Source: Escherichia coli
GTDB taxonomy: Bacteria; Pseudomonadota; Gammaproteobacteria; Enterobacterales; Enterobacteriaceae
Direction: 5' to 3' (one strand)
Length of the DNA stretch: 64,000 nucleotides
NCBI RefSeq assembly: GCF_017348835.2
Contig: NZ_CP071375.1
Shown one piece after another: positions 1 through 62,273 of the stretch (the first letter of the stretch is position 1; each line of letters starts with the position of its first letter). Below the pieces are notes generated by a model. The model did not search any database. It saw only the letters and a list, made by a program, of their open reading frames with translations, and was not told where the DNA came from. The position numbers and the translations under genes were made by a program.

Positions 1-370
1 GCTGGATGCACTGGAGCAGGCGTTGTGGGCCCGTCGGCCGTCCGGCACAATCCATCACAGTGATAAAGGTTCTCAGTATGTATCGCTGGCCTACACGCAG
101 CGGCTTAAGGAAGCCGGATTACTGGCATCAACAGGGAGTACTGGCGACTCGTATGACAACGCGATGGCTGAGAGCATCAATGGTCTTTACAAAGCGGAGG
201 TAATACACCGTAAGAGCTGGAAAAACCGTGCAGAAGTGGAACTGGCCACACTAACGTGGGTGGACTGGTATAACAATCGACGATTGCTGGAAAGGCTGGG
301 CCATATTCCTCCGGCAGAAGCAGAAAAAGCTTATTATGCTTCCATCGGAAATAATGATCTGGCAGCCTGA
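1..370 (+). CDS. IS3-family transposase OrfB, C-terminal portion (5' end lies outside the window)
   Basis: Translation of ORF 23-370 shows IS3-family integrase-core C-terminal features; the reading frame is open to the window start. Confidence 0.85.
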   Translation, partial: LDALEQALWARRPSGTIHHSDKGSQYVSLAYTQRLKEAGLLASTGSTGDSYDNAMAESINGLYKAEVIHRKSWKNRAEVELATLTWVDWYNNRRLLERLGHIPPAEAEKAYYASIGNNDLAA

Positions 371-412
371 GTTCACAGATAAAACACTCTCCAGGAAACC
401 CGGGGCGGTTCA
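1..412 (+). mobile_element. Right-end portion of an IS3-family insertion sequence (IS629/IS1203-like); the window starts inside the element
   Basis: ORF 23-370 is the C-terminal part of an IS3-family OrfB transposase (YDNAMAESINGLYKAEV motif region). The sequence after its stop (c. 371-412) is the reverse complement of a TGAACCGCCCCGGGTTTCCTGGAGA-type terminal inverted repeat. Element identity below family level is from memory. Confidence 0.8.
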
Positions 413-1119
413 AAATGGTGAACTTGTCCTCGATAACAGACCACCACCCCTTCTGCACCTTTAGTCACCAACAGCATGGCGATCTCATACTCTTTTGCCA
501 GGGCGCATATATCCCGATCGTTCTGTGTTTTTCCACTGATAAGTCGCCATTCTTCTTCCGAGAGCTTGACGACATCCGCCAGTTGTAGCGCCTGCCGCAA
601 ACACAAGCGGAGCAAATGCTCGTCTTGCCATAGATCTTCACGAATATTGGGATCGAAGCTGACAAAACCTCCGGCATGCCGGATCGCCGTCATCGCAGTA
701 AATGCGCTGGTACGCGAAGGCTCGGCAGACAACGCAATTGAACAGAGATGTAACCATTCGCCATGTCGCCAGCAGGGCAAGTCTGTCGTCTCTAAAAAAA
801 GATCGGCACTGGGGCGAACCATAAACGTAAATGAACGTTCCCCTTGATCGTTCAGATCGACAAGCACCGTGGATGTCCGGTGCCATTCATCTTGCTTCAG
901 ATACGTGATATCGACTCCCTCAGTTAGCAGAGTTCTTTGCATTAACGCACCAAAAGGATCATCACCGACCCGACCTATAAACCCACTTATTCCGCCTAAT
1001 CTGGCGATTCCCACCGCAACGTTAGCTGGCGCGCCGCCAGGACAAGGCAGTAGGCGCCCGTCTGATTCTGGCAAGAGATCTACTACCGCATCCCCTAAAA
1101 CCCATACTTTGGCTGACAT
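413..1119 (-). pseudogene. cscK: cscK fructokinase (PfkB family), 3'-truncated by the IS insertion
   Basis: ORF 373-1119 begins MSAKVWVLGDAVVDLLPE, the N-terminus of csc-regulon fructokinase. The native sequence ends after ...GQVHHF (about codon 235) and the remaining residues are read from IS sequence; the C-terminal PfkB DTTGAGD-type motif is missing. Confidence 0.8.
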
Positions 1120-1334
1120 TTTTTTCCCTTAAATTCATCTGACTTACGCATAGTGATAAACCTCTTTTTCGCAAAATCGTCATGGATTTACTAAAACATG
1201 CATATTCGATCACAAAATGTCATGGTTAACGTTAACATTTGTGATATTCATCGCATTTATGAAAGTAAGGGACTTTATTTTTATAAAAGTTAACGTTAAC
1301 AATTCACCAAATTTGCTTAACCAGGATGATTAAA
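1120..1334. promoter_or_regulatory. Divergent cscK / cscA control region with two identical 12-bp palindromes GTTAACGTTAAC (c. 1225-1236 and 1289-1300) and TGTGA-containing CRP-like sequence
   Basis: Two perfect copies of the palindrome GTTAACGTTAAC about 64 bp apart in an AT-rich divergent intergenic region next to a LacI-family repressor gene; candidate CscR operators. Confidence 0.55.
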
Positions 1335-2768
1335 ATGACGCAATCTCGATTGCATGCGGCGCAAAACGCACTAGCAAAACTTCATGAGCACCGGGGTAAC
1401 ACTTTCTATCCCCATTTTCACCTCGCGCCTCCTGCCGGGTGGATGAACGATCCAAACGGCCTGATCTGGTTTAACGATCGTTATCACGCGTTTTATCAAC
1501 ATCACCCGATGAGCGAACACTGGGGGCCAATGCACTGGGGACATGCCACCAGCGACGATATGATCCACTGGCAGCATGAGCCTATTGCGCTAGCGCCAGG
1601 AGACGATAATGACAAAGACGGGTGTTTTTCAGGTAGTGCTGTCGATGACAATGGTGTCCTCTCACTTATCTACACCGGACACGTCTGGCTCGATGGTGCA
1701 GGTAATGACGATGCAATTCGCGAAGTACAATGTCTGGCTACCAGTCGGGATGGTATTCATTTCGAGAAACAGGGTGTGATCCTCACTCCACCAGAAGGAA
1801 TCATGCACTTCCGCGATCCTAAAGTGTGGCGTGAAGCCGACTCATGGTGGATGGTAGTCGGGGCGAAAGACCCAGGCAACACGGGGCAGATCCTGCTTTA
1901 TCGCGGCAGTTCATTACGTGAATGGACTTTCGATCGCGTACTGGCCCACGCTGATGCGGGTGAAAGCTATATGTGGGAATGTCCGGACTTTTTCAGCCTT
2001 GGCGATCAGCATTATCTGATGTTTTCCCCGCAGGGAATGAATGCCGAGGGATACAGTTACCGAAATCGCTTTCAAAGTGGCGTAATACCCGGAATGTGGT
2101 CGCCAGGACGACTTTTTGCACAATCCGGGCATTTTACTGAACTTGATAACGGGCATGACTTTTATGCACCACAAAGCTTTGTAGCGAAGGATGGTCGGCG
2201 TATTGTTATCGGCTGGATGGATATGTGGGAATCGCCAATGCCCTCAAAACGTGAAGGCTGGGCAGGCTGCATGACGCTGGCGCGCGAGCTATCAGAGAGC
2301 AATGGCAAACTCCTACAACGCCCGGTACACGAAGCTGAGTCGTTACGCCAGCAGCATCAATCTATCTCTCCCCGCACAATCAGCAATAAATATGTTTTGC
2401 AGGAAAACGCGCAAGCAGTTGAGATTCAGTTGCAGTGGGCGCTGAAGAACAGTGATGCCGAACATTACGGATTACAGCTCGGCACTGGAATGCGGCTGTA
2501 TATTGATAACCAATCTGAGCGACTTGTTTTGTGGCGGTATTACCCACACGAGAATTTAGACGGCTACCGTAGTATTCCCCTCCCGCAGGGTGAGACGCTC
2601 GCCCTAAGGATATTTATCGATACATCATCCGTGGAAGTATTTATTAACGACGGGGAAGCGGTGATGAGTAGTCGAATCTATCCGCAGCCAGAAGAACGGG
2701 AACTGTCGCTTTATGCCTCCCACGGAGTGGCTGTGGTGCAACATGGAGCACTCTGGCAACTGGGTTAG
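1335..2768 (+). CDS. cscA: Sucrose-6-phosphate hydrolase / invertase (GH32)
   Basis: ORF 1326-2768. WMNDPNGL GH32 motif near the N-terminus. Start moved to the second ATG (MTQSRLH...) which has AGGA 8 nt upstream, giving 477 aa. Confidence 0.9.
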   Translation: MTQSRLHAAQNALAKLHEHRGNTFYPHFHLAPPAGWMNDPNGLIWFNDRYHAFYQHHPMSEHWGPMHWGHATSDDMIHWQHEPIALAPGDDNDKDGCFSGSAVDDNGVLSLIYTGHVWLDGAGNDDAIREVQCLATSRDGIHFEKQGVILTPPEGIMHFRDPKVWREADSWWMVVGAKDPGNTGQILLYRGSSLREWTFDRVLAHADAGESYMWECPDFFSLGDQHYLMFSPQGMNAEGYSYRNRFQSGVIPGMWSPGRLFAQSGHFTELDNGHDFYAPQSFVAKDGRRIVIGWMDMWESPMPSKREGWAGCMTLARELSESNGKLLQRPVHEAESLRQQHQSISPRTISNKYVLQENAQAVEIQLQWALKNSDAEHYGLQLGTGMRLYIDNQSERLVLWRYYPHENLDGYRSIPLPQGETLALRIFIDTSSVEVFINDGEAVMSSRIYPQPEERELSLYASHGVAVVQHGALWQLG

Positions 2769-2775
2769 CATAATA

Positions 2776-3771
2776 TCAGGTGGAACAACGGATCAACAGC
2801 GGGCAAGGGATCCGCGTCACACTTCCCCCTTCACGACCTTCAATAATATGCAATGCAGCTTCCCGCCCGATAATGTCATGTGGAAGCTGAATTGTGGTCA
2901 GCGGCGGTAAAAACAGATGCCCGACGCCAACCAGATTATCAAAGCCCATTACGGCGACATCCTGCGGGATACGTACCCCCTTCGCCAGGAGAACCTGATA
3001 AGCCACAAAGGCTGCGCGATCGTTACCACATATCAGAACATCAAAATCTGGTTTGCCCGATTTGAAGTGGTCATTGAGTAAACTTGCGAGATCGGTGTAG
3101 TGATCATCACCTGTTGCCATGTGAAATTGTTTCACCTCAGCCAGATCTCGTCCAGCATCACGCCAGGCCTGCTCAAATCCCTGCCGACGATACCCTGTTA
3201 CCAACGCACTTTCCGGTAGCCAGAAGCATAACGGTTGACGATAGCCCGCCGCGAGCAAATGCTGTGTTGATTCATATTGTGCAGTGTAATCATCAGGGAT
3301 ATAACTGGGTAACGCTGGGTCATCCGCCACACAGTTCGCCAATACAATATTTTCACCATACAGAGACTCAGGCAGCGTGATATGTCGCAGCCCCATTGTA
3401 GTATAGATAATGCCATCCGGACGGTGGGCAAGCAGCTGACGTGCCGCGCGGGCAGCGTCATCTTCAGAAAAAATATTGATTAAAAAACTATTCCAGCCGA
3501 ACTCGCTGGCGGTTTGCTCAATGGCAAGCAGAATATCAACAGAGAAAGGAGTGGTAGCAGTGTCCTGCGCCAGCACGGCGAGAGTCGACGGCTTACGTCC
3601 TTGAGCGCGCATCTTACGGGCGGAAAGATCAGGAACATAATTCAGGGTCTGGATTGCCTGCAATACGCGGTCACGCGTTGCAGGACGCACAGATTCTGCA
3701 TTATGCATCACCCGGGAGACTGTCATCATCGACACTCCCGCCAGGCGTGCGACATCCTTTAATGAAGCCAT
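2776..3771 (-). CDS. cscR: LacI-family sucrose operon repressor
   Basis: ORF 2776-3957 trimmed to the internal ATG giving MASLKDVARLAGVSMMTVSRV (LacI-type HTH) and a 331-aa product; convergent with cscA. Confidence 0.88.
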   Translation of the reverse strand: MASLKDVARLAGVSMMTVSRVMHNAESVRPATRDRVLQAIQTLNYVPDLSARKMRAQGRKPSTLAVLAQDTATTPFSVDILLAIEQTASEFGWNSFLINIFSEDDAARAARQLLAHRPDGIIYTTMGLRHITLPESLYGENIVLANCVADDPALPSYIPDDYTAQYESTQHLLAAGYRQPLCFWLPESALVTGYRRQGFEQAWRDAGRDLAEVKQFHMATGDDHYTDLASLLNDHFKSGKPDFDVLICGNDRAAFVAYQVLLAKGVRIPQDVAVMGFDNLVGVGHLFLPPLTTIQLPHDIIGREAALHIIEGREGGSVTRIPCPLLIRCST

Positions 3772-4001
3772 ACCCAAGCCGTTTGTCGTAAAACGGGCAC
3801 TGTAGCAGAAACAGACGTCACTGGCGAGATCCAACGCCCTATCACCTGACACGGCAATACAATAAAAAATAACAATAATTCCCGGCCAATTGTCCCCAAT
3901 TCCGCCTCTGTTCTCGCCAACGAGTAACCATATAGGCAAGTAAGTAAAACATGCCAACTGGCATCGCCAACCTGGAGAAGAAAATATAAATATGGATCAT
4001 T

Positions 4002-4220
4002 GTGCTGCCGCTGTATCCCGACATCAGCCCGGAAATTATTGCGATTGCTATCGGTTCAGGTGCAATTGGCTGCACTATCGTTACGGACTCGCTTTTCTGG
4101 CTGGTGAAGCAATATTGCGGCGCTACGCTCAATGAAACATTTAAATACTATACGACAGCGACATTTATCGCTTCAGTCGTCGCTCTGGCGGGCACATTCC
4201 TGCTGTCATTTATCATCTAA
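4002..4220 (+). pseudogene. dsdX: 3' remnant of dsdX (D-serine/gluconate-family permease), C-terminal ~72 codons only
   Basis: ORF 4002-4220 encodes a hydrophobic C-terminal segment ending ...[12 protein letters not shown], immediately upstream of dsdA as in the dsdXA operon; no N-terminal part and no dsdC are present. Confidence 0.75.
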
Positions 4221-26165: not shown

Positions 26166-27023
26166 ATGAAAGCACCAGGCTTGCCCGCCGATCAACAATT
26201 TTTCGCCGATCTGTTCAGCGGCCTGGTGCTTAACCCGCAACTACTGGGGCGCGTCTGTTTTGCCAGCCAGCCTGCCTCGTTGCCGGTGGGCAGTTTATGT
26301 ATTGATTTTCCCCGTCTGGATATCGTGCTGCGCGGCGAATACGGCAATCTGCTGGAAGCAAAGCAGCAACGTTTGGTGGAAGGAGAAATGCTGTTTATTC
26401 CGGCGCGCGCGGCTAATTTACCGGTCAACAACAAACCGGTGATGCTGTTAAGCCTGGTGTTCGCTCCGACCTGGCTTGGGTTATCGTTTTACGATAGCCG
26501 CACCACGTCGTTGTTGCATCCTGCTCGCCAGATCCAGCTTCCCAGCCTGCAACGCGGTGAAGGTGAAGCGATGCTTACCGCCCTCACCCATCTTAGCCGT
26601 TCGCCGCTGGAGCAAAATATCATTCAGCCGCTGGTGTTAAGTTTGCTGCATCTTTGCCGTAACGTGGTGAATATGCCGCCGGGCAATTCACAGCCGCGCG
26701 GCGATTTTCTCTATCACAGCATTTGTAACTGGGTTCAGGATAATTATGCCCAGCCGCTCACCCGCGAGAGCGTGGCGCAGTTTTTTAATATCACGCCCAA
26801 TCATCTGTCAAAACTGTTTGCTCAGCATGGAACGATGCGTTTTATCGAGTATGTGCGTTGGGTGCGAATGGCGAAGGCGAGGATGATTTTGCAGAAATAT
26901 CATCTGTCAATTCATGAAGTGGCACAGCGTTGCGGTTTTCCGGATAGCGACTATTTTTGTCGCGTTTTCCGGCGTCAGTTTGGTCTGACGCCGGGAGAGT
27001 ACAGCGCCCGTTTTCAGGGCTAA
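26166..27023 (+). CDS. ypdC: AraC-family transcriptional regulator
   Basis: 285-aa ORF with a C-terminal AraC-type HTH. Confidence 0.9.
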   Translation: MKAPGLPADQQFFADLFSGLVLNPQLLGRVCFASQPASLPVGSLCIDFPRLDIVLRGEYGNLLEAKQQRLVEGEMLFIPARAANLPVNNKPVMLLSLVFAPTWLGLSFYDSRTTSLLHPARQIQLPSLQRGEGEAMLTALTHLSRSPLEQNIIQPLVLSLLHLCRNVVNMPPGNSQPRGDFLYHSICNWVQDNYAQPLTRESVAQFFNITPNHLSKLFAQHGTMRFIEYVRWVRMAKARMILQKYHLSIHEVAQRCGFPDSDYFCRVFRRQFGLTPGEYSARFQG

Positions 27024-27025
27024 CG

Positions 27026-29521
27026 TCAGAAGGTTAATTCTGTTTCCAGCAGCGTCAGGATACTTTGTGCATCTTGCGCGGCAAACAACGACTGGCGGAA
27101 GTTTTTATTCACCAGTTTACGCGCCAGCTGCGAGAAGACTTTCACATGATTCATCCCTTCGTTAGCGCCCAGCGTCAGCATGATCACCAGTTCGACTTCG
27201 CCCATTTCTGACTGCCAGTCAACCGGTTTCACCAGCCGGGCAATGCTGATACTGGAATGACGGATCCACTGCGATTTGGTGTGCGGGATCGCCACGCCAA
27301 AACCAACGCCAGTGGTGACAATCTCTTCCCGCTGCCAGACATCCTCTTCCAGCTCGAACGGATGTTCAGTGCGCCCGTTAACGCCGAGGTTACCGCACAG
27401 GAACTGGATCGCCTGCTCTTTATTGCTAAAGGCCTGATCAACGAAGATATTCTCCAGCGCCAGCAGCGGGCGAACGTCTTCTTCCGGCGTAAAGGCGGTG
27501 AGTAACGCTTCAATTTCCTGCGCGCTGCGACATTCACACGCCTGACGTGCCAGTTCCCGACACGCCTCGCTATCCAGTTGACGAAGCTGGCTTTTCACCG
27601 CCGGAATGCGCGGGCTACTCATACTCAGCTCATCCAGGCCCAGCCCAAGCAGTAGCGGCAGGTAACGACTTTCGCCTCCCAGTTCACCGCAAATGCCTAC
27701 CCATTTGCCCCGCTGATGCGCAGTGGTAACTATTTGCTGCAACATGCGCAGGAACGATGGCGTAATCGGGTTATATAGCGGCGATACGCGCGGGTTATTA
27801 CGATCGACCGCATAAAGATACTGGGTCATATCGTTGGAGCCGATACTGAAGAAATCGACCTCATCGCAGAAGTGATCGATGATGTAGCACACCGACGGCA
27901 CTTCCACCATGATACCCAGCGTAATCGTCTCTGCATGACGCAGGCCATCGCGCTTAAGCTCAACGATCGCTTTTTGGATCTCGCCCTTCACCCATAAGAT
28001 CTGATCGAGGCTGTGGACCATCGGGATCATCAACTGGGCGTTGCCGAAACTGGCGGCGCGCAAAATGGCCCGCAGTTGAGTGCGGAACAGGCCAGCAAAT
28101 TCCGGGTAAATACGTACCGCGCGATAGCCGAGGAACGGGTTCTCTTCCTGGGGAATATTCAGATAAGGAATGCTTTTATCGCCTCCGATGTCCATTGTGC
28201 GGAAGATAATCGGCTTATCGCCCGCTGCCAGTAGCACCTGCTGGTAGGCTTCAAATTGCTCCTGCTCGTCCGGCGCGCTGTCGCGATCCATATAGAGCAT
28301 TTCGGTACGGAACAGCCCGACGCCTTCCGCGCCGTTGGCAAACGCGCCAGGCGCTTCCAGAGCGGTGCCAATATTCGCCGCGATATCAATACGCTTGTTA
28401 TCACGGGAATAAGCCAGCTGCGCGGCAGCCTGCGCCTGTTGTTTTTGGCGTTTATCCGCCAGCGTCTGCGCGACCTGATAATAACCGCTCACCGCGTCAT
28501 TCGGGTTAATCGCCAGCACGCCGCACTGGGCGTCAAGCACTGCAGGTTGCCCGGCATAACGGGCAATCGCATCCAGCGGCAGGCCGCTCAGTACCGGGAT
28601 CGCCGAGGCGCGGGCCAGAATCAGGGTATGCGAGGTGCGCCCGGTTTTCTCCAGAATCATGCCCGCAAGATTTTTCAAATCAAGGCTCAAAAACTGGCTT
28701 GGGGTTAAATCTTCAGCCACCAGAATGGTCGGTTTTTCAAGCACCAGATTGTTGCGCGGCTTCAGTTCCGGCCAGGTGATATGCAGCAACTGTTCGCTGA
28801 TATCGCGAATGTCGCTAACCCGCTCGCGCAGATAATCGCTGGCAGAAGCAGATAGTTTGGCGCAAACCTGCTCCATATTGCTGATGATCGCCGCCCCCAG
28901 CCCCTGATGCTGTTCTGTCATCAGGCGACGGATATTGCCCGCGAACTCATCATCCTGAATCAGCGACAAATGGGCGCTGAGGATAGTTTTGCTTTCGCCG
29001 TCACGCTCACGCAATTGCTGGTTCAGTTGCTCGGCAAGCGTTGCCAGGCTGTGCTCCAGCCGGGTGGAGTCTTGCGCACTGGCGGGGATTGCCCGATAAC
29101 TGTCGAGGCTGTCGCTTTGTAACAGGGTCAGCGTACCCACGCCGACGCCGCTTGCCAGCACATTGCCGTACAGTAAATCCGGGTTAAGGCGGCTTAATGA
29201 ACGCGGCAGCGGATGCGCCGTCAGTTCTGCCTGCGTTGGCTGAACGCTGTCGCTGTCAATAAAGCACACCTGGATGTACTCTTCCAGCACGCGCCGCGCC
29301 TGCTCTTCATCGCTGCCGCTAATGTTCAGGCTGCAACTGTCATTAAATAAGGTGCCGGTGCCAATCAGCGCCAGCGAGCTTTTGGCATCGGCCTTTGCGT
29401 TCTGGCGATGGTTGATGAAGGTGATTTCGCTTTGCCACTGGCTGCACTGTTCTTTAAGTTCCCACGCCGGACGGGCATGAAGACCGTTAGGCAAAGGACA
29501 GAGAAATTGAATCGTTAGCAT
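27026..29521 (-). CDS. fryA: PTS multiphosphoryl transfer protein (HPr-like, Enzyme I-like and EIIA-Fru-like domains)
   Basis: 831-aa ORF with HPr-like N-terminus, PEP-utilising enzyme core and a C-terminal EIIA domain. Confidence 0.92.
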   Translation of the reverse strand: MLTIQFLCPLPNGLHARPAWELKEQCSQWQSEITFINHRQNAKADAKSSLALIGTGTLFNDSCSLNISGSDEEQARRVLEEYIQVCFIDSDSVQPTQAELTAHPLPRSLSRLNPDLLYGNVLASGVGVGTLTLLQSDSLDSYRAIPASAQDSTRLEHSLATLAEQLNQQLRERDGESKTILSAHLSLIQDDEFAGNIRRLMTEQHQGLGAAIISNMEQVCAKLSASASDYLRERVSDIRDISEQLLHITWPELKPRNNLVLEKPTILVAEDLTPSQFLSLDLKNLAGMILEKTGRTSHTLILARASAIPVLSGLPLDAIARYAGQPAVLDAQCGVLAINPNDAVSGYYQVAQTLADKRQKQQAQAAAQLAYSRDNKRIDIAANIGTALEAPGAFANGAEGVGLFRTEMLYMDRDSAPDEQEQFEAYQQVLLAAGDKPIIFRTMDIGGDKSIPYLNIPQEENPFLGYRAVRIYPEFAGLFRTQLRAILRAASFGNAQLMIPMVHSLDQILWVKGEIQKAIVELKRDGLRHAETITLGIMVEVPSVCYIIDHFCDEVDFFSIGSNDMTQYLYAVDRNNPRVSPLYNPITPSFLRMLQQIVTTAHQRGKWVGICGELGGESRYLPLLLGLGLDELSMSSPRIPAVKSQLRQLDSEACRELARQACECRSAQEIEALLTAFTPEEDVRPLLALENIFVDQAFSNKEQAIQFLCGNLGVNGRTEHPFELEEDVWQREEIVTTGVGFGVAIPHTKSQWIRHSSISIARLVKPVDWQSEMGEVELVIMLTLGANEGMNHVKVFSQLARKLVNKNFRQSLFAAQDAQSILTLLETELTF

Positions 29522-39290: not shown

Positions 39291-39322
39291 AAAAAAGCCG
39301 GGGATAATTCCCCGGTTTTTTT
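39291..39322. terminator. Bidirectional intrinsic terminator between nupC and pdeA
   Basis: AAAAAAGCCGGGGATAATTCCCCGGTTTTTTT hairpin with flanking A/T runs. Confidence 0.8.
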
Positions 39323-45045: not shown

Positions 45046-45077
45046 CTATCTGCGATTTGTAAGATTGATTTTTCTTC

Positions 45078-45104
45078 TCAAGTTCCTTGTTCTTCTACCG
45101 ATAT
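45078..45104 (+). promoter_or_regulatory. Candidate sigma-28 (FliA)-type promoter upstream of the FlxA-like ORF (TCAAGTTC-N11-ACCGATAT)
   Basis: Matches the class 3 flagellar promoter consensus TAAAGTTT-N11-GCCGATAA at 6/8 plus 6/8 positions with exact 11-bp spacing, about 30 bp upstream of the ATG. Confidence 0.45.
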
Positions 45105-45132
45105 TACCTCGTACAGTGACGAGGACTGAACA

Positions 45133-45474
45133 ATGGCCACTATCTCTTCAACTTCAATTCCTTCCATACAAACACAGAGTAGTAACAGGGCATCACAAGG
45201 TAGCGATGTTGCTTCACAAATCGCGCGGATAAGTCAGCAAATCATCAAACTCACTCAACAAATTAAAGAGATTGTAGACACTAGCGGCAGTGCTGAAGAC
45301 AAGCAAAAACAGGCCGAATTGATTCAACAGCAAATCACCCTACTGGAAACACAACTGGCGCAGTTGCAGAGACAGCAGGCAGAAAAGGCGCAGGAGAAAG
45401 AGCAGCGTTTGTCTCTGAATGTATCCCTTCTAAATCCTGTTGAAAATACGACTCATATCGATATCTATATCTGA
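45133..45474 (+). CDS. Small coiled-coil protein, FlxA-like family (113 aa)
   Basis: ATG preceded by GAGGA at about 8 nt; Ser/Thr/Gln-rich N-terminus, central Q/K/E-rich heptad coiled coil (…[35 protein letters not shown]…) and C-terminal …THIDIYI, resembling FlxA-type proteins. The 3' end overlaps the yfeR stop by 10 nt. Family assignment is from memory. Confidence 0.6.
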
Positions 45475-46480: not shown

Positions 46481-47479
46481 ATGAAACTTTTTCGTATCCT
46501 CGATCCTTTCACCTTAACCCTGATCACGGTGGTGTTGCTGGCCTCTTTCTTTCCGGCCAGAGGCGATTTCGTCCCCTTCTTTGAAAATCTGACCACCGCA
46601 GCTATTGCCCTGCTGTTCTTTATGCACGGCGCGAAGTTGTCGCGTGAGGCGATTATTGCTGGCGGTGGTCACTGGCGACTGCATTTGTGGGTAATGTGCA
46701 GCACCTTCGTGCTGTTTCCGATTCTGGGTGTACTGTTTGCCTGGTGGAAACCGGTAAATGTCGACCCGATGCTCTACTCCGGTTTTCTCTACTTGTGCAT
46801 TCTCCCGGCTACCGTGCAGTCTGCAATCGCCTTCACGTCAATGGCGGGCGGTAACGTCGCGGCGGCGGTTTGTTCTGCGTCGGCATCCAGCCTGCTGGGG
46901 ATTTTCCTTTCACCATTGCTGGTTGGCCTGGTGATGAATGTTCACGGTGCAGGGGGCAGCCTTGAGCAGGTCGGTAAAATTATGCTGCAACTGTTGCTGC
47001 CGTTTGTGTTGGGGCATCTTTCCCGGCCGTGGATTGGTGACTGGGTGTCGCGCAATAAAAAATGGATTGCGAAAACTGACCAGACGTCCATTCTGTTGGT
47101 GGTTTATACAGCGTTCAGCGAAGCCGTCGTTAATGGTATCTGGCATAAAGTTGGCTGGGGATCATTGCTGTTTATCGTGGTGGTCAGCTGCGTTCTTCTG
47201 GCTATCGTGATTGTAGTTAACGTCTTTATGGCACGCCGACTAGGCTTCAATAAAGCAGATGAAATTACTATCGTCTTTTGTGGTTCGAAAAAGAGTCTGG
47301 CAAATGGCATCCCGATGGCAAACATTCTGTTCCCCACATCGGTGATCGGTATGATGGTGCTGCCCCTGATGATTTTCCATCAGATCCAATTGATGGTCTG
47401 TGCGGTGCTGGCGCGGCGATACAAACGCCAGACCGAACAGTTACAGGCACAGCAGGAAAGCAGCACCGATAAAGCTTAA
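46481..47479 (+). CDS. yfeH: Bile acid:sodium symporter (BASS)-family membrane protein
   Basis: 332-aa polytopic membrane ORF. Confidence 0.9.
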   Translation: MKLFRILDPFTLTLITVVLLASFFPARGDFVPFFENLTTAAIALLFFMHGAKLSREAIIAGGGHWRLHLWVMCSTFVLFPILGVLFAWWKPVNVDPMLYSGFLYLCILPATVQSAIAFTSMAGGNVAAAVCSASASSLLGIFLSPLLVGLVMNVHGAGGSLEQVGKIMLQLLLPFVLGHLSRPWIGDWVSRNKKWIAKTDQTSILLVVYTAFSEAVVNGIWHKVGWGSLLFIVVVSCVLLAIVIVVNVFMARRLGFNKADEITIVFCGSKKSLANGIPMANILFPTSVIGMMVLPLMIFHQIQLMVCAVLARRYKRQTEQLQAQQESSTDKA

Positions 47480-47694
47480 AGCGGACGCTTCAGGGGCTGG
47501 ACCAGTTGCGTCAGCCCCTCGGTTTTAATCAGCAGCGTGATTTGCATTAGCTCACCGAGCTTCCCTGCCGGGAACTCATCTTTGCGGGCAAACCACAGCA
47601 GATACTCCTCCGGCAGGTCGATTAAGCGACGCCCTTTGTATTTGCCAAACGGCATTATCGTATTGGCTATTTCAATCAGCTGCTCTTTTTCCAT
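47476..47694 (-). CDS. ypeB: DUF3820-family small protein
   Basis: ORF 47476-47787 trimmed to the internal ATG (MEKEQLIEIANTIMPFGKYKG), 72 aa; lies immediately downstream of ligA in the same orientation. Confidence 0.8.
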   Translation of the reverse strand: MEKEQLIEIANTIMPFGKYKGRRLIDLPEEYLLWFARKDEFPAGKLGELMQITLLIKTEGLTQLVQPLKRPL

Positions 47695-47695
47695 C

Positions 47696-49720
<2,025 letters not shown>

Positions 49721-53612: not shown

Positions 53613-55340
53613 ATGATTTCAGGCATTTTAGCATCCCCGGGTATCGCTTTCGGTAAAGCTCTGCTTCTGAAAGAAGACGAAATTGTCATTGACCGGAAAA
53701 AAATTTCTGCCGACCAGGTTGATCAGGAAGTTGAACGTTTTCTGAGCGGTCGTGCCAAGGCATCAGCCCAGCTGGAAACGATCAAAACGAAAGCTGGTGA
53801 AACGTTCGGTGAAGAAAAAGAAGCCATCTTTGAAGGGCATATTATGCTGCTCGAAGATGAGGAGCTGGAGCAGGAAATCATAGCCCTGATTAAAGATAAG
53901 CACATGACAGCTGACGCAGCTGCTCATGAAGTTATCGAAGGTCAGGCTTCTGCCCTGGAAGAGCTGGATGATGAATACCTGAAAGAACGTGCGGCTGACG
54001 TACGTGATATCGGTAAGCGCCTGCTGCGCAACATCCTGGGCCTGAAGATTATCGACCTGAGCGCCATTCAGGATGAAGTCATTCTGGTTGCCGCTGACCT
54101 GACGCCGTCCGAAACCGCACAGCTGAACCTGAAGAAGGTGCTGGGTTTCATCACCGACGCGGGTGGCCGTACTTCCCACACCTCTATCATGGCGCGTTCT
54201 CTGGAACTACCTGCTATCGTGGGTACCGGTAGCGTCACCTCTCAGGTGAAAAATGACGACTATCTGATTCTGGATGCCGTAAATAATCAGGTTTACGTCA
54301 ATCCAACCAACGAAGTTATTGATAAAATGCGCGCTGTTCAGGAGCAAGTGGCTTCTGAAAAAGCAGAGCTTGCTAAACTGAAAGATCTGCCAGCTATTAC
54401 GCTGGACGGTCACCAGGTAGAAGTATGCGCTAACATTGGTACGGTTCGTGACGTTGAAGGTGCAGAGCGTAACGGCGCTGAAGGCGTTGGTCTGTATCGT
54501 ACTGAGTTCCTGTTCATGGACCGCGACGCGCTGCCCACTGAAGAAGAACAGTTTGCTGCTTACAAAGCAGTGGCTGAAGCGTGTGGCTCGCAGGCGGTTA
54601 TCGTTCGTACCATGGACATCGGCGGCGACAAAGAGCTGCCATACATGAACTTCCCGAAAGAAGAGAACCCGTTCCTCGGCTGGCGCGCTATCCGTATCGC
54701 AATGGATCGTAAAGAGATCCTGCGCGATCAGCTCCGCGCTATCCTGCGTGCCTCGGCTTTCGGTAAATTGCGCATTATGTTCCCGATGATCATCTCTGTT
54801 GAAGAAGTGCGTGCACTGCGCAAAGAGATCGAAATCTACAAACAGGAACTGCGCGACGAAGGTAAAGCGTTTGACGAGTCAATTGAAATCGGCGTAATGG
54901 TGGAAACACCGGCTGCCGCAACAATTGCACGTCATTTAGCCAAAGAAGTTGATTTCTTTAGTATCGGCACCAATGATTTAACGCAGTACACTCTGGCAGT
55001 TGACCGTGGTAATGATATGATTTCACACCTTTACCAGCCAATGTCACCGTCCGTGCTGAACTTGATCAAGCAAGTTATTGATGCTTCTCATGCTGAAGGC
55101 AAATGGACTGGCATGTGTGGTGAGCTTGCTGGCGATGAACGTGCTACACTTCTGTTGCTGGGGATGGGTCTGGACGAATTCTCTATGAGCGCCATTTCTA
55201 TCCCGCGCATTAAGAAGATTATCCGTAACACGAACTTCGAAGATGCGAAGGTGTTAGCAGAGCAGGCTCTTGCTCAACCGACAACGGACGAGTTAATGAC
55301 GCTGGTTAACAAGTTCATTGAAGAAAAAACAATCTGCTAA
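53613..55340 (+). CDS. ptsI: PTS Enzyme I
   Basis: 575-aa ORF with phosphohistidine region (…[15 protein letters not shown]…). Confidence 0.97.
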
Positions 55341-55380
55341 TCCACGAGATGCGGCCCAATTTACTGCTTAGGAGAAGATC

Positions 55381-55890
55381 ATGGGTTTGTTCGATAAACT
55401 GAAATCTCTGGTTTCCGACGACAAGAAGGATACCGGAACTATTGAGATCATTGCTCCGCTCTCTGGCGAGATCGTCAATATCGAAGACGTGCCGGATGTC
55501 GTTTTTGCGGAAAAAATCGTTGGTGATGGTATTGCTATCAAACCAACGGGTAACAAAATGGTCGCGCCTGTAGACGGTACCATTGGTAAAATCTTTGAAA
55601 CCAACCACGCATTCTCTATCGAATCTGATAGCGGCGTTGAACTGTTCGTCCACTTCGGTATCGACACCGTTGAACTGAAAGGCGAAGGCTTCAAGCGTAT
55701 TGCTGAAGAAGGTCAGCGCGTGAAAGTTGGCGATACTGTCATTGAATTTGATCTGCCGCTGCTGGAAGAGAAAGCCAAGTCTACCCTGACTCCGGTTGTT
55801 ATCTCCAACATGGACGAAATCAAAGAACTGATCAAACTGTCCGGTAGCGTAACCGTGGGTGAAACCCCGGTTATCCGCATCAAGAAGTAA
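55381..55890 (+). CDS. crr: Glucose-specific PTS EIIA
   Basis: 169-aa ORF starting [39 protein letters not shown]. Confidence 0.97.
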
Positions 55891-55904
55891 TTCTTGCCGC
55901 AGTG

Positions 55905-55936
55905 AAAAATGGCGCCCATCGGCGCCATTTTTTTAT
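55905..55936. terminator. Bidirectional intrinsic terminator between crr and pdxK
   Basis: AAAAATGGCGCC-catc-GGCGCCATTTTTTT hairpin; overlaps the pdxK stop. Confidence 0.85.
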
Positions 55937-56784
55937 GCTTCCGCCAGCGGCGGCAAAATCAATTCATCGCTCTCATGCTGCTGGGTGTAGCGCATCACTT
56001 CCAGTACGCGCAACCCCGCTCGGTGCACTGCATCGGTTAACGCCTTCCCTTTCAGCAAACCACTGATAAGCTGAGCACAAAACAGGTCGCCAGTCCCTTT
56101 CAGGTCGGTTTTTACCCGTGAATGGGAAATGACATTCACGCTGTCGGCAGTGACCACCACCACCTGCATCTCCTGATTTTCTTCATTACCGGAGGCGCTG
56201 GTAATCACCACCCATTTTAATGTGTCTGAAAGCAGACTTTTTGCGGCAGCAATGGCACTGTCGAGATCGCGGCAATTTTTACCGGTCAGGATTTCCAGCT
56301 CAAAGATATTGGGGGTAATTCCCTGCGCTAGTGGCAGTAAATATTGTCGATACGCCTCGGGAAGGTCAGGTTTGACATAAATTCCGCTATCAATATCGCC
56401 AATCACCGGATCGACCATGATCAATAGGTCAGGATGGTCTTTGCGTAGCGCAGTCAGCCACTCGGCAAGGATTTTGATTTGCGATGCCGTTCCCATATAG
56501 CCCGTGGTTACAGCTCGAAGTTGGCGCAGCGCATCACGCTCCTGAAGCGCACGCAAATAGCCGCTAAACCATTCGTCCGGAATCGCACCACCGTAGAAAG
56601 TGTCATAATGCGGCGTATTGCTCAGCAATACCGTCGGCACGGCAAAGACATTCAGACCGTTCTGTTTGATAGCAGGCACCGCAATGCTGTTGCCTACGCT
56701 GCCGTACACTACCTGCGACTGCACGGCGACGATATCCGCCTGCAGTGCCCTGCTCTTATCGTTAAACAACAACAAACTACTCAT
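55933..56784 (-). CDS. pdxK: Pyridoxal/pyridoxine/pyridoxamine kinase
   Basis: 283-aa ORF of the PfkB-like pyridoxal kinase family. Confidence 0.93.
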
Positions 56785-56797
56785 TTAATTTTTTCTC

Positions 56798-56863
<66 letters not shown>

Positions 56864-56888
56864 CACAAAACAAGGATAAGGTAATTCA

Positions 56889-57257
56889 ATGAAGAAAATC
56901 ATTTGTCTGGTCATTACACTACTAATGACACTCCCCGCTTACGCGAAGTTAACTGCCCATGAAGAAGCCCGCATCAACGCCATGCTGGAGGGATTAGCAC
57001 AGAAAAAGGATTTGATATTTGTGCGCAACGGTGATGAACATACCTGCGATGAAGCGGTTTCTCATCTGCGTCTGAAGCTCGGCAATACCCGTAACCGCAT
57101 TAACACTGCCGAGCAGTTTATTGATAAGGTTGCTTCGTCATCATCGATTACCGGGAAGCCGTATATCGTGAAGATGCCCGGTAAGAGCGATGAGAATGCA
57201 CAGCCTTTTTTACATGCGTTAATTGCGCAGACGGATAAAACGGTGCCTGCGCAATAA
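56889..57257 (+). CDS. yfeK: Small secreted protein of unknown function
   Basis: 122-aa ORF with signal peptide ([19 protein letters not shown]). Confidence 0.85.
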
Positions 57258-57259
57258 TC

Positions 57260-58171
57260 TTAAATCCCCGCCCCCTGACTAAAATGCTCTTCCCCAAACA
57301 CCCCGGTGGAAAGGTAGCGATCGCCACGATCGCAGATGATCGCTACCACCACCGCACCAGGGTTAGCTTTTGCCACCCGCAGTGCTCCAGCAACCGCGCC
57401 GCCGGAGCTGACGCCACAGAATATTCCTTCCCGCACTGCCAGTTCGCGCATGGTGTTTTCCGCATCGCGCTGATGAATATCCAGCACCTCATCCATCAGC
57501 GAAGCGTTGAAAATCCCCGGCAGATATTCCGCAGGCCAGCGGCGAATGCCGGGAATGCTGCTGCCCTCTTCCGGTTGCAGGCCGACAATGGTCACCGGTT
57601 TGGATTGTTCGCGCATAAAGCGTGACACGCCGGTGATAGTGCCGGTTGTTCCCATGCTGGAGACAAAATGGGTAATGCGCCCGCCAGTTTGCTGCCAGAT
57701 TTCCGGCCCGGTAGTGGTGTAATGGGCGTAAGGGTTATCGGGATTATTGAACTGATCGAGCAGCTTTCCTTCACCACGATTCGCCATCTCCAGCGCCAGA
57801 TCGCGCGCACCTTCCATGCCCTGCTCTTTGGTGACAAGAATCAGTTCCGCACCATAAGCACGCATCGCCGCACGGCGTTCCTGGCTCATGTTGTCGGGCA
57901 TCAGCAATTTCATGCGATAGCCTTTAAGCGCGGCAATCATTGCCAGCGCAATGCCGGTGTTACCACTGGTGGCTTCGATTAACACATCACCCGGTTTAAT
58001 TTCCCCGCGCTTTTCCGCCTCGACGATCATCGAAAGCGCCGCACGATCTTTTACCGAACCTGCCGGGTTATTGCCTTCCAGTTTCAACCACACTTCACTG
58101 CCGTTATTCGGCCCCATTCGCTGCAACTTCACCAGAGGTGTATTGCCAATTGTTTGTTCTAATGTACTCAC
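57260..58171 (-). CDS. cysM: Cysteine synthase B (O-acetylserine sulfhydrylase B)
   Basis: ORF 57260-58249 trimmed to the GTG giving (M)STLEQTIGNTPLVKLQRM, 303 aa; PLP-lysine region (…NPAGSVKDRAA…). Confidence 0.93.
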   Translation of the reverse strand: MSTLEQTIGNTPLVKLQRMGPNNGSEVWLKLEGNNPAGSVKDRAALSMIVEAEKRGEIKPGDVLIEATSGNTGIALAMIAALKGYRMKLLMPDNMSQERRAAMRAYGAELILVTKEQGMEGARDLALEMANRGEGKLLDQFNNPDNPYAHYTTTGPEIWQQTGGRITHFVSSMGTTGTITGVSRFMREQSKPVTIVGLQPEEGSSIPGIRRWPAEYLPGIFNASLMDEVLDIHQRDAENTMRELAVREGIFCGVSSGGAVAGALRVAKANPGAVVVAIICDRGDRYLSTGVFGEEHFSQGAGI

Positions 58172-58179
58172 GATCTCTA

Positions 58180-58245
58180 TCCATACGTGGTGTTGCCTGA
58201 TGCGACGCTTGCGCGTCTTATCAGGCCTACAGGTTACAAACCTTG
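58180..58245. repeat. REP element between cysA and cysM
   Basis: GCCTGATGCGACGCTTGCGCGTCTTATCAGGCCTAC palindromic unit. Confidence 0.8.
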
Positions 58246-58304
58246 CCATTAAAAAGCCCGGATCGCGGGAAGCGCCTCCGGGCGTTTAACATTCACTCAA
58301 CCTA

Positions 58305-59402
58305 TCAGGCGCTTTGTGCGAGAGCAAGTTCCTCATCTCGGGTTTCGATACGCTCGTCGCCGTTATACAGCCGCGCATGTTGCAGACCAACGAATAAACG
58401 CTCGCCACGCTGCGGGGCATCGTCGCCATGCATCACGACCGTCAGCGGTTCGTTGTACCACCCCAGCGGCTGCACCACTAATTGGGTGTAGTGACCTTTC
58501 GGGCTGGCTTCCAGTACCTGTACCGGCAGCGGCGAATCGAGGCTGGTACGGCGGCTGATATCCACTTCCCAAGGGCGCAGGAAGAGATCCACCGGCCCCT
58601 GATATGCAGGTGTGTAGCCCAGCGGCCAGCGATGCGCGCCAACATGGAACTGCCCGCCGCGAATGGTTCCCTGCAGGCGGTTCACTTCGCCCATAAATTC
58701 GAGCACAAAACGGGTCGCCGGTTCGCGCCATACCTGATCCGGCGCGTCAGCCTGTTCAATATTGCCCTGGCTCATCACAACTACACGATCAGCTACTTCG
58801 GTCGCTTCTTCCTGATCGTGGGTCACAAAAACGCTGGTGAATTTTAGTTCTTCATGGAGTTGACGCAGCCAGCGACGCAGCTCTTTACGCACCTGCGCAT
58901 CCAGCGCGCCAAACGGTTCATCAAGCAGCAGAATTTGCGGTTCCACAGCCAGCGCGCGCGCCAGCGCCACGCGCTGTTTCTGGCCGCCGGAAAGCTGCGC
59001 CGGATAACGATCCGCCAGATGGGCAAGCTGGACCATTTCCAGCAATTTTGTCACTTTCGCTTTGATGGCTGCGGCATTCGGGCGCTCGCGACGCGGCAGC
59101 ACCGTCAGGCCAAAAGCGATATTGTCGAACACCGTCATATGGCGGAACAGCGCGTAATGCTGGAACACGAAACCGACTTTACGATCACGTGCGTGCAGGC
59201 GGCTCACGTCGGTGCCGTGGAAGCGAATATGCCCGCTGGTTTGATGCTCCAGCCCGGCGATAATGCGCAGCAGCGTGGTTTTCCCGGAACCGGACGGCCC
59301 CAGCAACGCGACCATCTGACCTGAAGGAATATCCAGTGAGATATCGTTCAGCACCTGGGTGCGACCAAAAGACTTCTTAATATTGGCAATCTCAATGCTC
59401 AT
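58305..59402 (-). CDS. cysA: Sulfate/thiosulfate ABC transporter ATP-binding protein
   Basis: 365-aa ORF with Walker A (GPSGSGKTT), ABC signature ([14 protein letters not shown]) and Walker B. Confidence 0.95.
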
Positions 59403-60267
59403 GATGCTCCTCCTGCTGCGCGCGTTTTTCCTGATTCTCCAGACGCCACTGCAACATACTCTTTAAAAACAGGGTGATAATCGCCATCAGCGTCAACAGC
59501 GCGGCGGCGGTAAAGGAGCCGACGGTGTTGTAGTCCTGCTCCAGCAATTCAATCTGTAACGGCAGCGAAAGTGTTTCGCCGCGAATCGAGCCGGAAACCA
59601 CCGACACCGCGCCAAACTCGCCAATCGCGCGGGCGTTGGTCAGCACTACGCCATAAAGCAGCGCCCAGCGGATGTTCGGCAATGTGACACGGCGGAACAT
59701 CTGCCAGCCAGACGCGCCAAGCAAAATCGCCGCTTCGTCTTCCTGGCTGCCCTGGCTTAACATCACCGGCACCAGCTCGCGCACCACAAACGGACATGTC
59801 ACAAAGATGGTGACCAGCACCATTCCCGGCCAGGAGAACATAATTTGCAGATTATGTTCATCCAGCCAGCCGCCGAGCGGGCCGTTAGAGCCGTAGAACA
59901 GCAGATACACCAGACCGGCAACCACCGGCGATACGGCAAACGGAATGTCCAGTAGCGTCAGCAGTAACTGGCGTCCAGGGAAGTTAAAGCGCGTCACCAG
60001 CCAGGCCAGCAGAATGCCGAACACCAGGTTTACCGGTACGGCAATCAGCGCGATCATCACCGTCAGCCAGATGGCGTGCAGCATATCCGGATCGGCCAGA
60101 TTCTGTAAAACCGGCATCAGCCCTTTGCTGAACGCCTGTACGAAGATATAAATCATCGGCACCAGCAGGATGAACGCCGATACCAGCATCCCGATGCCAA
60201 TCAGAAACCATTTGCCCCAGTTAATCGGGCGCGCGTCATAACGCTTCAATTGGGTAACTTCCGCCAT
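59392..60267 (-). CDS. cysW: Sulfate/thiosulfate ABC transporter permease
   Basis: 291-aa permease ORF; overlaps cysA by 11 nt. Confidence 0.95.
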
Positions 60268-61100
60268 TAATGACCTACCACACGCCGACCAAAGCGACTT
60301 TGCAGAGTGTTAATTGAGAACAGCAGCAGCAGAGATGCCGCGAGGATCACCGAAGCAATCGCGCTCGCTGCCGGGTAATCAAACTCCTGCAAGCGCACAA
60401 AAATCATCAGCGACGTCACTTCCGTCTTCCAGGCGATGTTCCCGGCGATAAATATCACCGCGCCAAACTCACCAAGACTACGGGTAAACGACAACGCCAC
60501 GCCCGCCACCAGCGCCGGAGAAAGTTCCGGCAGCACCACTTTGCAGAAACTCTGCCAGCGCGTTGCACCAAGCGTTTCCGCCGCTTCTTCATATTCCGGG
60601 CCTAACTCTTCCAGCACCGGCTGCACGGTACGCACCACAAACGGAATGCTGGTAAAGGCCATCGCCACCGCAATCCCAAGCCAGGTGTAGGTGACTTTGA
60701 TATCAAACTTCGCCAGCCATTCACCGTAAAAACCGTTCACGGAAAAGAGCGAGGCCAGCGTTAAACCGGCGACTGCCGTTGGCAGCGCAAAGGGTAAATC
60801 CATCAGCGCATCAAGCAGCGTGCGGCCAGGGAAGCGATAACGAGTTAAGATCCACGCCATCAGCAGGCCGAAAACGCCGTTAAAAATCGATGCCACAAAC
60901 GCCGACAGCAGCGTCACTTTGTAGGCTGCGACCACCTGCGGGTTGGTGATCACCTCCCAGTACTGCGCCCAGCTCATCTGGGCCAGCTGCATCACCAGCG
61001 CGGAGAGTGGCAGGAGCAAAATCAGGCAAACAAACAGCAGACTGGTGCCGAGGCTTAAGGTAAAGCCCGGCAGCACGCGTCTTGATGAAACTGCAAACAT
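60267..61100 (-). CDS. cysU: Sulfate/thiosulfate ABC transporter permease
   Basis: 277-aa permease ORF; stop/start overlaps with cysW and cysP. Confidence 0.95.
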   Translation of the reverse strand: MFAVSSRRVLPGFTLSLGTSLLFVCLILLLPLSALVMQLAQMSWAQYWEVITNPQVVAAYKVTLLSAFVASIFNGVFGLLMAWILTRYRFPGRTLLDALMDLPFALPTAVAGLTLASLFSVNGFYGEWLAKFDIKVTYTWLGIAVAMAFTSIPFVVRTVQPVLEELGPEYEEAAETLGATRWQSFCKVVLPELSPALVAGVALSFTRSLGEFGAVIFIAGNIAWKTEVTSLMIFVRLQEFDYPAASAIASVILAASLLLLFSINTLQSRFGRRVVGH

Positions 61101-62116: not shown

Positions 62117-62273
62117 TGCGCACCCTTATAAATTTAATGACTTTCTAATAGCCATCATATTTATAACGGACGTGAAAGGAGTAACGGTTTTATATACCGT
62201 TTGGTGATTTGGAAGTTGAAAAGGGAATAAGACGAAATCCTCCCCACACATGCAGGGAGGAAACAGAGGTGAA

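Follow-up and report, generated by a model that had tools for sequence, protein, structure and literature searches.

The 2-bp yfeK–cysM Junction of Escherichia coli: A Majority State, with yfeS Probably Gained in the K-12 Lineage

Introduction

In the 64,000-nucleotide stretch of Escherichia coli DNA analysed here (the window), the convergent genes yfeK and cysM meet tail to tail, and the gene yfeS is missing from between them. A preliminary description of the window asked whether a precise deletion had occurred here or whether K-12 carries an insertion, and proposed that convergent transcription without a terminator could cause interference between yfeK and the cysPUWAM operon. The locus therefore raises two questions: was yfeS lost here or gained elsewhere, and how might transcription end where two genes leave no space between them? 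The joint explanation that best fits the observations, to which we assign a probability of roughly 0.85, is that the junction in the window is ancestral and nothing has been lost from it, that the lineage of K-12 and B gained yfeS, and that transcription ends by a mechanism that we infer below.

The Junction and Its Two Genes

The junction consists of three features:

56889 to 57257, plus strand: yfeK coding sequence, an ATG open reading frame of 122 aa with its TAA at 57255-57257
57258 to 57259, no strand: the 2 bp TC that separate the stop codons, from reading of the sequence
57260 to 58171, minus strand: cysM coding sequence (cysteine synthase B), 303 aa, with a GTG start at 58169-58171

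These coordinates are a deterministic reading of the sequence in which no statistical signal is involved. The list of open reading frames and the raw sequence agree with the preliminary description that the yfeK stop (57257) and the cysM stop (57260, the reverse complement of TAA at 57260-57262) are 2 bp apart. They likewise bear out the absence of yfeS: only TC lies between the stops, and there is no open reading frame with a WGR domain (PF05406) between yfeK and cysM in the window.

YfeK is a signal-peptide protein of the DUF5329 family (Pfam PF17263, E=1.1e-31), matching the family model over residues 24-115 and scoring 109.4 bits where the cut-off is 27. It is 95.9% identical in amino acid sequence to its K-12 counterpart and ends in ...TVPAQ*, compared with ...TVPAEGN* in the 124-aa K-12 protein. 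CysM is a full-length orthologue of K-12 CysM, with 98.7% amino acid identity across residues 1-303, and cysM closes the cysPUWAM unit, with cysA and then cysW lying beyond it. It should be mentioned that cysM can also be read as a 329-aa ATG open reading frame; this reading was rejected, as it is an upstream extension only and RefSeq annotates the 303-aa form.

In a megablast search covering 5426 complete E. coli genomes, strain PE164 proved to contain a stretch with 100% identity. The RefSeq annotation of that strain, in which yfeK is named “YfeK family protein”, likewise shows both genes 2 bp apart, and so do the annotations of four other yfeS-less genomes. With YfeS as the tblastn query, matches were obtained in K-12 (L001) and in L005, and none in the window-identical PE164 (L002). 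An Rfam scan of positions 54000-61000 returned no small RNA at the junction, and its sole match is listed here for context only:

58194 to 58226, plus strand: REP element in the cysM–cysA spacer, a partial and sub-threshold match to Rfam naRNA4

The score of this stretch against naRNA4, a REP-derived family, is 37.9 bits, and the gathering score is 59.5. The same stretch matches several places in each E. coli genome.

Frequency of the Two States

The uninterrupted junction was counted with a 121-nt probe spanning the yfeK–cysM boundary, and it is present in 4038 of the 5426 complete E. coli genomes (74%), among them O157:H7, O55:H7, ST131, NU14, and O127:H6 (E2348/69). The yfeS cassette was found in 1381 of the 5426, including K-12 derivatives and BL21. 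The two counts together account for nearly all of the genomes. The yfeS-less junction is thus the majority state of E. coli, and the implication of the preliminary description that K-12 represents the norm has to be reversed. Neither state is new, since both are annotated in thousands of RefSeq genomes, and the majority state is already visible there.

All yfeS-less genomes that were opened have the junction sequence ...GCGCAATAATCTTAAAT... in common. The TC spacer is invariant among the sampled yfeS-less E. coli, and reads AC in Pseudocitrobacter faecalis. The recurrence of the same junction in thousands of independent complete genomes also disposes of the idea that yfeS is missing through an artefact of assembly or annotation, such as a mis-assembly or a collapsed repeat; this can be regarded as excluded, with a residual probability that is negligible.

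The K-12 Arrangement and the Boundaries of the Indel

According to the preliminary description, a 244-aa yfeS lies between the two genes in K-12, and this proved correct in both the MG1655 annotation and the alignment. The gene order in MG1655 is pdxK, yfeK (124 aa), yfeS (244 aa), a 188-nt spacer, and cysM. The possibility that K-12 shares the 2-bp junction is thereby removed: it has yfeS and the 188-nt spacer instead, and two REPs sit within this spacer, 3' of cysM. K-12 yfeS is annotated as “WGR domain-containing protein” (PF05406). The flanking genes pdxK, yfeK, cysM, and cysA are common to both loci, with 97-99% nucleotide identity, and the difference is confined to a 967-nt segment in K-12 (the longer yfeK tail, yfeS, and the two REPs) that corresponds to 8 nt in the window:

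57252 to 57259, no strand: indel point, the 8 nt CAATAATC, from pairwise alignment and BLAST

The alignment with K-12 that the preliminary description had called for thus sets 8 nt against 967 nt (L001 2153-3119). On the left, homology ends at 57251 (...CCTGCG), or at 57254 if one mismatch is accepted (CAA in the window, GAA in K-12); on the right, it resumes from 57255, where TAATC-TTAAAT in the window faces TAATCCTTAAAT in K-12. Within the K-12 segment lie the last three codons of the longer yfeK with its stop, a 32-nt spacer that includes an AGGAGG ribosome-binding site, yfeS, and the two REP elements, which are in inverted orientation. Direct repeats were also to be looked for in this alignment, and an exact 8-bp repeat, ATTAATCC, is present at both edges of the K-12 cassette (L001 2160-2167 and 3112-3119). 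The same repeats stand at the cassette boundaries in BL21 and in a cassette-bearing Pseudocitrobacter metagenome-assembled genome (MAG).

Compared with the empty site CAATAATC, the left junction in K-12 (GAAGGAAATTAATCC) has 7 additional nt. Judged from these sequences, the insertion does not look like a clean target-site duplication, and extra steps would be needed in either direction. The K-12 cassette contains no transposase or integrase, and yfeS is its sole open reading frame; its ends carry no terminal inverted repeats, and the two REPs are the only strong inverted repeats in it.

Gain or Loss of yfeS

The preliminary description offered both directions of change, and an insertion in K-12 is strongly favoured over a precise deletion in the lineage of the window. 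The frequency of the two states, base composition, the distribution of homologues, synonymous divergence, and the state of the site in other lineages all point the same way.

The G+C content of yfeS is 39.2%, compared with 46.4% for yfeK and 56.5% for cysM. In a protein search, the YfeS homologues of E. coli and Shigella form a cluster with at least 89% identity, followed by matches at no more than 65% and then at no more than 58%. The named homologues outside the cluster come from Paenibacillus, Dysgonomonas, Lysinibacillus, Clostridium, Bacteroidota, and Fusobacterium, and among the matches returned there was no named homologue from Salmonella or Klebsiella. The named distant homologues belong to the Firmicutes, Bacteroidota, and Fusobacteria.

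The cassette-bearing Pseudocitrobacter MAG is informative in this respect, as its flanks are genuinely Pseudocitrobacter-like. Between K-12 and this MAG, the dS of yfeS is 0.123, and that of the flanking genes is 0.552 (cysM) and 1.139 (yfeK); within E. coli (K-12 versus BL21), the dS of yfeS is 0.090, and the K-12-type and B-type alleles of the cassette are 96.8% identical. Because the dS of yfeS is far below that of its flanks, the cassette has crossed between genera much later than the genera split. The low G+C content of yfeS and its low dS relative to the flanks show a recent foreign origin.

The opposite view is that yfeS was present in the ancestor and that the lineage of the window deleted the cassette by recombination between the flanking ATTAATCC repeats. 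This view can draw on the exact 8-bp repeats, which stand right at the cassette boundaries in K-12, BL21, and the Pseudocitrobacter MAG, on the occurrence of the cassette at the same site in two genera, and on the 124-aa yfeK, which is common to several genera with cargo at this site. The main objection to it is the sequence of the junction: recombination between the repeats predicts ...GCGGAAGGAAATTAATCC|TTAAAT, whereas ...GCGCAATAATC|TTAAAT is seen in all sampled yfeS-less genomes. In other words, a deletion would leave a 124-aa yfeK and a 3-nt TCC gap, and what is observed is a yfeK of 122 aa and TC. Moreover, the yfeS-less genomes are the majority and include deep-branching pathotypes and other Escherichia species, and the low G+C content of yfeS and its dS below that of the flanks also speak against ancestral presence. 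Judged from these sequences, deletion in the lineage of the window appears largely refuted, and we consider it very improbable.

Under the favoured explanation, a gain by K-12 and its relatives, a promoterless cassette of ~960 nt (yfeS and the REP pair) would have been acquired by K-12, by B/BL21, and by about a quarter of E. coli. It would have lodged immediately before the stop codon that yfeK originally used, changing the last codons of yfeK so that the protein grew from 122 to 124 aa, and it would have placed yfeS under the sigma-E promoter of yfeK, creating a yfeKS operon. The most likely route by which the cassette spread among enterobacterial genera would be homologous recombination through the conserved flanks. 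A single gain in phylogroup A would be compatible with the phylogroups presumed from the names of the strains concerned.

As for possible vehicles, no yfeS was found on genuine plasmids. A plasmid-borne homologue with 69.9% identity (pZ0117EC0005-3) was rejected as a chromosome-like fragment, 95% identical to the pdxK-yfeK-yfeS-cysM region of K-12 and ridden with frameshifts. YfeS is likewise absent from the phage collection searched, where there were only weak C-terminal matches in Listeria phages. A further YfeS cluster, P0003 (89%), was considered as a third host lineage and discarded, as it belongs to a K-12-like E. coli contig in which yfeS has lost 75 nt internally.

The yfeK–cysM Site in Other Lineages

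In seven other enterobacterial lineages, yfeK and cysM adjoin convergently, with no yfeS between them. The comparison comes from one genome scan, and Salmonella and E. fergusonii were not among the genomes recovered:

Escherichia sp. E1V33: yfeK and cysM overlap by 12 nt, no yfeS
Enterobacteriaceae UBA5654: gap of 1 bp, no yfeS
Pseudocitrobacter faecalis: gap of 2 bp, no yfeS
Citrobacter amalonaticus: spacing of 31 nt, no yfeS
Superficieibacter sp.: spacing of 32 nt, no yfeS
Entomohabitans: spacing of 57 nt, no yfeS
Intestinirhabdus: spacing of 99 nt, no yfeS

P. faecalis was down-weighted as a clean outgroup. Over the final 90 nt, its yfeK shows 97-98% identity to E. coli, and the dS of this gene as a whole is 0.8; the species is no independent witness, as its empty junction may have been imported from Escherichia.

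Three further lineages have unrelated cargo between the two genes. In Klebsiella spallanzanii and Superficieibacter electus, this is a 135-aa SnoaL-like open reading frame whose stop overlaps the cysM stop; in E. albertii, it is a 1.8-kb segment with 35% G+C and two minus-strand open reading frames. The Pseudocitrobacter MAG carries the yfeS cassette itself at this site. Cargo thus recurs at the yfeK–cysM boundary in several enterobacterial genera, and there is evidence that cassettes have been exchanged between them, a mildly interesting by-product of the analysis. The site resembles the replacement of csc by dsdC/dsdX at the start of the window in having conserved flanks, strain-variable genes, and no mobility genes. 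It differs in that the cargos are single promoterless genes of ~0.4-1.8 kb that are common to several genera.

Transcription at the Junction

The remaining question is whether so tight a junction is of any consequence for the expression of the two units. Upstream of yfeK there is a promoter-like motif:

56828 to 56855, plus strand: sigma-E-type promoter-like motif GAAACTT-16 nt-TCAAA, from reading of the sequence

It fits the sigma-E consensus, and we take it to be a putative promoter. The motif is identical in K-12, and its conservation extends to Escherichia sp. E1V33 and to E. albertii. In K-12, yfeK or yfeKS has been described as a unit of the sigma-E regulon (PMC2685091, PMC11502571, PMC3326320). 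The scan for promoters and terminators found no sigma-70 promoter. CysB activates the cys operon when sulphur is limiting. With sigma-E (envelope stress) driving yfeK and CysB driving the cys operon, strong simultaneous convergent transcription would probably be uncommon, because the two units answer different signals.

The preliminary description also held that there is no room for terminators between the two genes. This is true of the intergenic space only; signals for termination can also be located within the coding sequence of the opposing gene. A consensus scan of both strands predicted no intrinsic terminator at the junction or close to it. The single match of the scan, at 57105-57117 on the plus strand, lies inside yfeK, and the number of matches is at the level of chance. 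Two other features are present:

57222 to 57255, no strand: inverted repeat with perfectly matched 9-bp arms, ATTGCGCAG-16 nt-CTGCGCAAT, within the 3' end of yfeK
57258 to 57520, plus strand: C-rich, G-poor untranslated read-through RNA of yfeK, antisense to the 3' end of cysM, identified by composition

Past the yfeK stop, 78-nt windows spanning ~250 nt give C/G ratios of 1.4-1.9; past the cysM stop, the bias is weaker, 1.2-1.3 over ~150 nt. In its composition, the tract at 57258-57520 resembles a Rho-loading (rut-like) region. Either Rho-dependent termination or collision of RNA polymerases is likely to act at the junction. The yfeK transcript would lose its translation at 57257 and expose the C-rich tract antisense to cysM, where Rho could terminate it. 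The cysPUWAM transcript would end through Rho, head-on collision of RNA polymerases, or both, and the hairpin at 57222-57255 might position its 3' end. The action of Rho on both read-through transcripts, once they are no longer translated, would be the best guess. Bidirectional termination of the collision type, which has been described for convergent E. coli genes (Ju et al. 2019, as cited in bioRxiv 10.1101/2022.10.23.513370), may contribute.

The last base of the inverted repeat is the T that opens the yfeK stop codon. RNA from either strand would fold into a hairpin there, which makes the repeat a candidate pause or 3'-end element. A bolder proposal is that this hairpin is a functional overlapping bidirectional terminator within the yfeK coding sequence, at which polymerases coming from either side would pause, so that head-on and trailing collisions would set both 3' ends. 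The same preprint reports hairpin-dependent collision termination without a U tract or Rho at convergent E. coli pairs, and the systems it describes share with yfeK/cysM the convergent pair, the lack of a canonical intrinsic terminator, and a hairpin palindrome at the boundary. At the present locus, the hairpin is predicted in both transcripts exactly at the gene boundary, and inverted repeats of this 9-bp type are enriched ~5-fold in the window (21, compared with 3.8 +/- 2.0 in shuffles). In the K-12 allele, the stem is weaker (one G-G mismatch), and REPs follow cysM there instead. Unlike the described terminators, however, the yfeK palindrome lies within coding sequence and is poorly conserved. 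As a 51-nt RNA, the region folds with -16.3 kcal/mol on the minus strand (z -3.5) and -14.0 on the plus strand (z -1.7), but with 91 nt of context it does not fold better than shuffled sequences and is significant on neither strand. There is no U tract after the hairpin on either strand. One stem pair is broken in a sampled genome (L004), and conservation of the repeat does not extend to E1V33 or UBA5654, where the right arm is absent although the junctions are equally tight or tighter. Finally, coding coincidence is sufficient to account for the repeat, because its arms are two Ala-Gln codon pairs (GCGCAG/GCGCAA) and their core TGCGCA is itself palindromic. Considering these points together, we regard a dedicated bidirectional terminator as rather unlikely.

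A broader proposal, to which we give a low probability, combines the palindrome with the history of the site: the yfeK/cysM boundary would be a cross-genus “docking site”, and the palindrome at the 3' end of yfeK would act as a bidirectional pause or termination element when the site is empty. Promoterless single-gene cargos (yfeS, SnoaL-like, and AT-rich DKNYY-like) might have been inserted repeatedly 3' of yfeK, and they might have been exchanged between enterobacterial genera through unusually conserved flanks.

Does transcription of yfeK and of cysPUWAM, then, interfere across the 2-bp junction to a biologically meaningful degree, as the preliminary description suspected? In favour of this are the absence of a predicted intrinsic terminator on both strands, the consequence that the transcript of each gene must run into the coding region of the other, and the orientation of the cys transcript, which past yfeK is co-oriented with pdxK. 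On the other side, the Rho-loading-like tract after the yfeK stop and the different signals, sigma-E and sulphur limitation, to which the units respond both argue against an effect of importance. The arrangement is, moreover, stable in 74% of E. coli, and comparable junctions occur at two other places in the window. The genes ypdC and fryA are convergent with a 2-bp gap (27023|27026), and yfeH and ypeB are convergent with a 4-bp overlap (47479/47476); these represent 2 of the 16 convergent junctions annotated in the matching 80 kb of K-12. Both pairs have the tight convergent stops of yfeK/cysM and are present in K-12, and in contrast to yfeK/cysM they are not polymorphic between the window and K-12. 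A 2-bp convergent gap is not unusual. Because the junction has been kept in thousands of genomes, overlaps in E1V33, and is matched elsewhere in the window, interference is less worrying than it first appears, and we consider a meaningful effect unlikely.

Significance

The yfeK–cysM junction lacking yfeS is confirmed but ordinary, with little significance beyond bookkeeping. It may serve as a natural test case for termination without intergenic space, of which many others exist. If the boundary is indeed a docking site, accessory genes would be wired into the envelope-stress regulon behind the sigma-E-driven yfeK. At this locus, K-12 is not the reference state of E. coli: yfeS is an ordinary accessory gene for a WGR-domain protein, and the gene, and hence the sigma-E “yfeKS operon”, is accessory and present in roughly a quarter of sequenced strains. 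Over-expression of yfeS is reported to be harmless, and a yfeS knockout of K-12 is reported to be sensitive to boric acid (PMC11502571). Phenotypes of K-12 yfeS such as this sensitivity cannot be extended to most E. coli.

The junction and other convergent ends in the window

The 2-bp interval between the stops of yfeK and cysM has counterparts elsewhere in the window, where ypdC (+, end 27023) and the ptsP-like fryA (-, end 27026) likewise face each other stop to stop with a 2-bp gap (26166-29521), and the convergent genes yfeH (+, end 47479) and ypeB (-, end 47476) overlap by 4 bp (46481-47787). K-12 shares both the ypdC/fryA junction and the yfeH/ypeB overlap.

The convergent genes crr and pdxK differ in this respect from yfeK and cysM: their spacer contains a palindrome, AAAAATGGCGCC...GGCGCCATTTTT (55905-55932), shaped like a classical bidirectional intrinsic terminator. 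In addition to the perfect inverted repeat in the 3' end of yfeK (57222-57255), there is another in the 3' end of cysM, GGTAGCGATC-15 nt-GATCGCTACC (57313-57347), which lies 55-90 nt 3' of the yfeK stop and differs in K-12 at one arm position. The spacer between cysM and cysA carries a repeat element, listed here with the two genes of the junction.

Features at and beside the junction (window coordinates)
56889-57257, +, yfeK
57260-58171, -, cysM
58194-58226, REP element between cysM and cysA; its partial match to the Rfam family naRNA4 stays below the gathering score (37.9 against 59.5 bits)

Further differences from K-12

The first 4002 nt of the window, upstream of dsdA, are without a K-12 match. 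They contain what look like csc sucrose-utilisation ORFs, assigned by reading their translations, and in K-12 the position of these ORFs is occupied by dsdC/dsdX.

csc-like ORFs within window 1-4002 (read from translation)
Fructokinase-like ORF, 248 aa, may be truncated
Invertase-like ORF, 480 aa
LacI-type repressor ORF

In place of the ~4.5 kb that in K-12 carry the RtT sRNA, xapR, xapB, xapA, and yfeN, the window contains a 407-nt stretch (45057-45463) with a small ORF, Gln-rich and coiled-coil-like, that starts at ~45134. An IS4-family element of K-12 (annotated IS421, ~1.3 kb) between nupC and pdeA is missing from the window (39301-39312). The cysP-ucpA spacer is ~142 nt longer in K-12 than in the window (62229-62232), and the extra sequence probably consists of REP elements.

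The yfeK-cysM site in other genomes

Within E. coli, yfeK of strain 136 is annotated as a frameshifted pseudogene (locus L019, 340-707), and a T run close to its 3' end has five T instead of six. In Escherichia sp. E1V33 (locus L003), the ends of the two genes, yfeK and cysM, share 12 nt (1417-1428); compared with E. coli, this junction has ~12 nt fewer, and the cysM stop is now TGA.

Among the genomes with yfeS at the site, the B-type cassette of BL21-AI (locus L021, 1983-2040) has a perfect hairpin directly 3' of the yfeS stop, ATTTGTCGGCAG-CAACAA-CTGCCGACAAAT, which is partially deleted in K-12. It should be mentioned that one yfeS-bearing record, pZ0117EC0005-3 (NZ_CP098226.1), was deposited as a 50-kb plasmid. 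Over the entire 8-kb stretch fetched from it (the pdxK-yfeK-yfeS-cysM-cysA neighbourhood), identity to the K-12 chromosome is 95% and frameshifts abound; the record is probably an error-rich chromosomal contig mis-assigned as a plasmid.

In E. albertii NBRC 107761, yfeK is separated from cysM by 1.8 kb of 35% G+C (locus L009, 3331-5149), with two neighbouring ORFs on the minus strand (280 and 175 aa); the 175-aa ORF weakly matches DKNYY, and the two are possibly one disrupted gene. In Klebsiella spallanzanii and Superficieibacter electus, the same site holds a SnoaL-like/DUF4440 ORF of ~135 aa (loci L007, 3398-3805, and L012, ~3530-3895), whose TAA stop shares 2 nt with the cysM stop.
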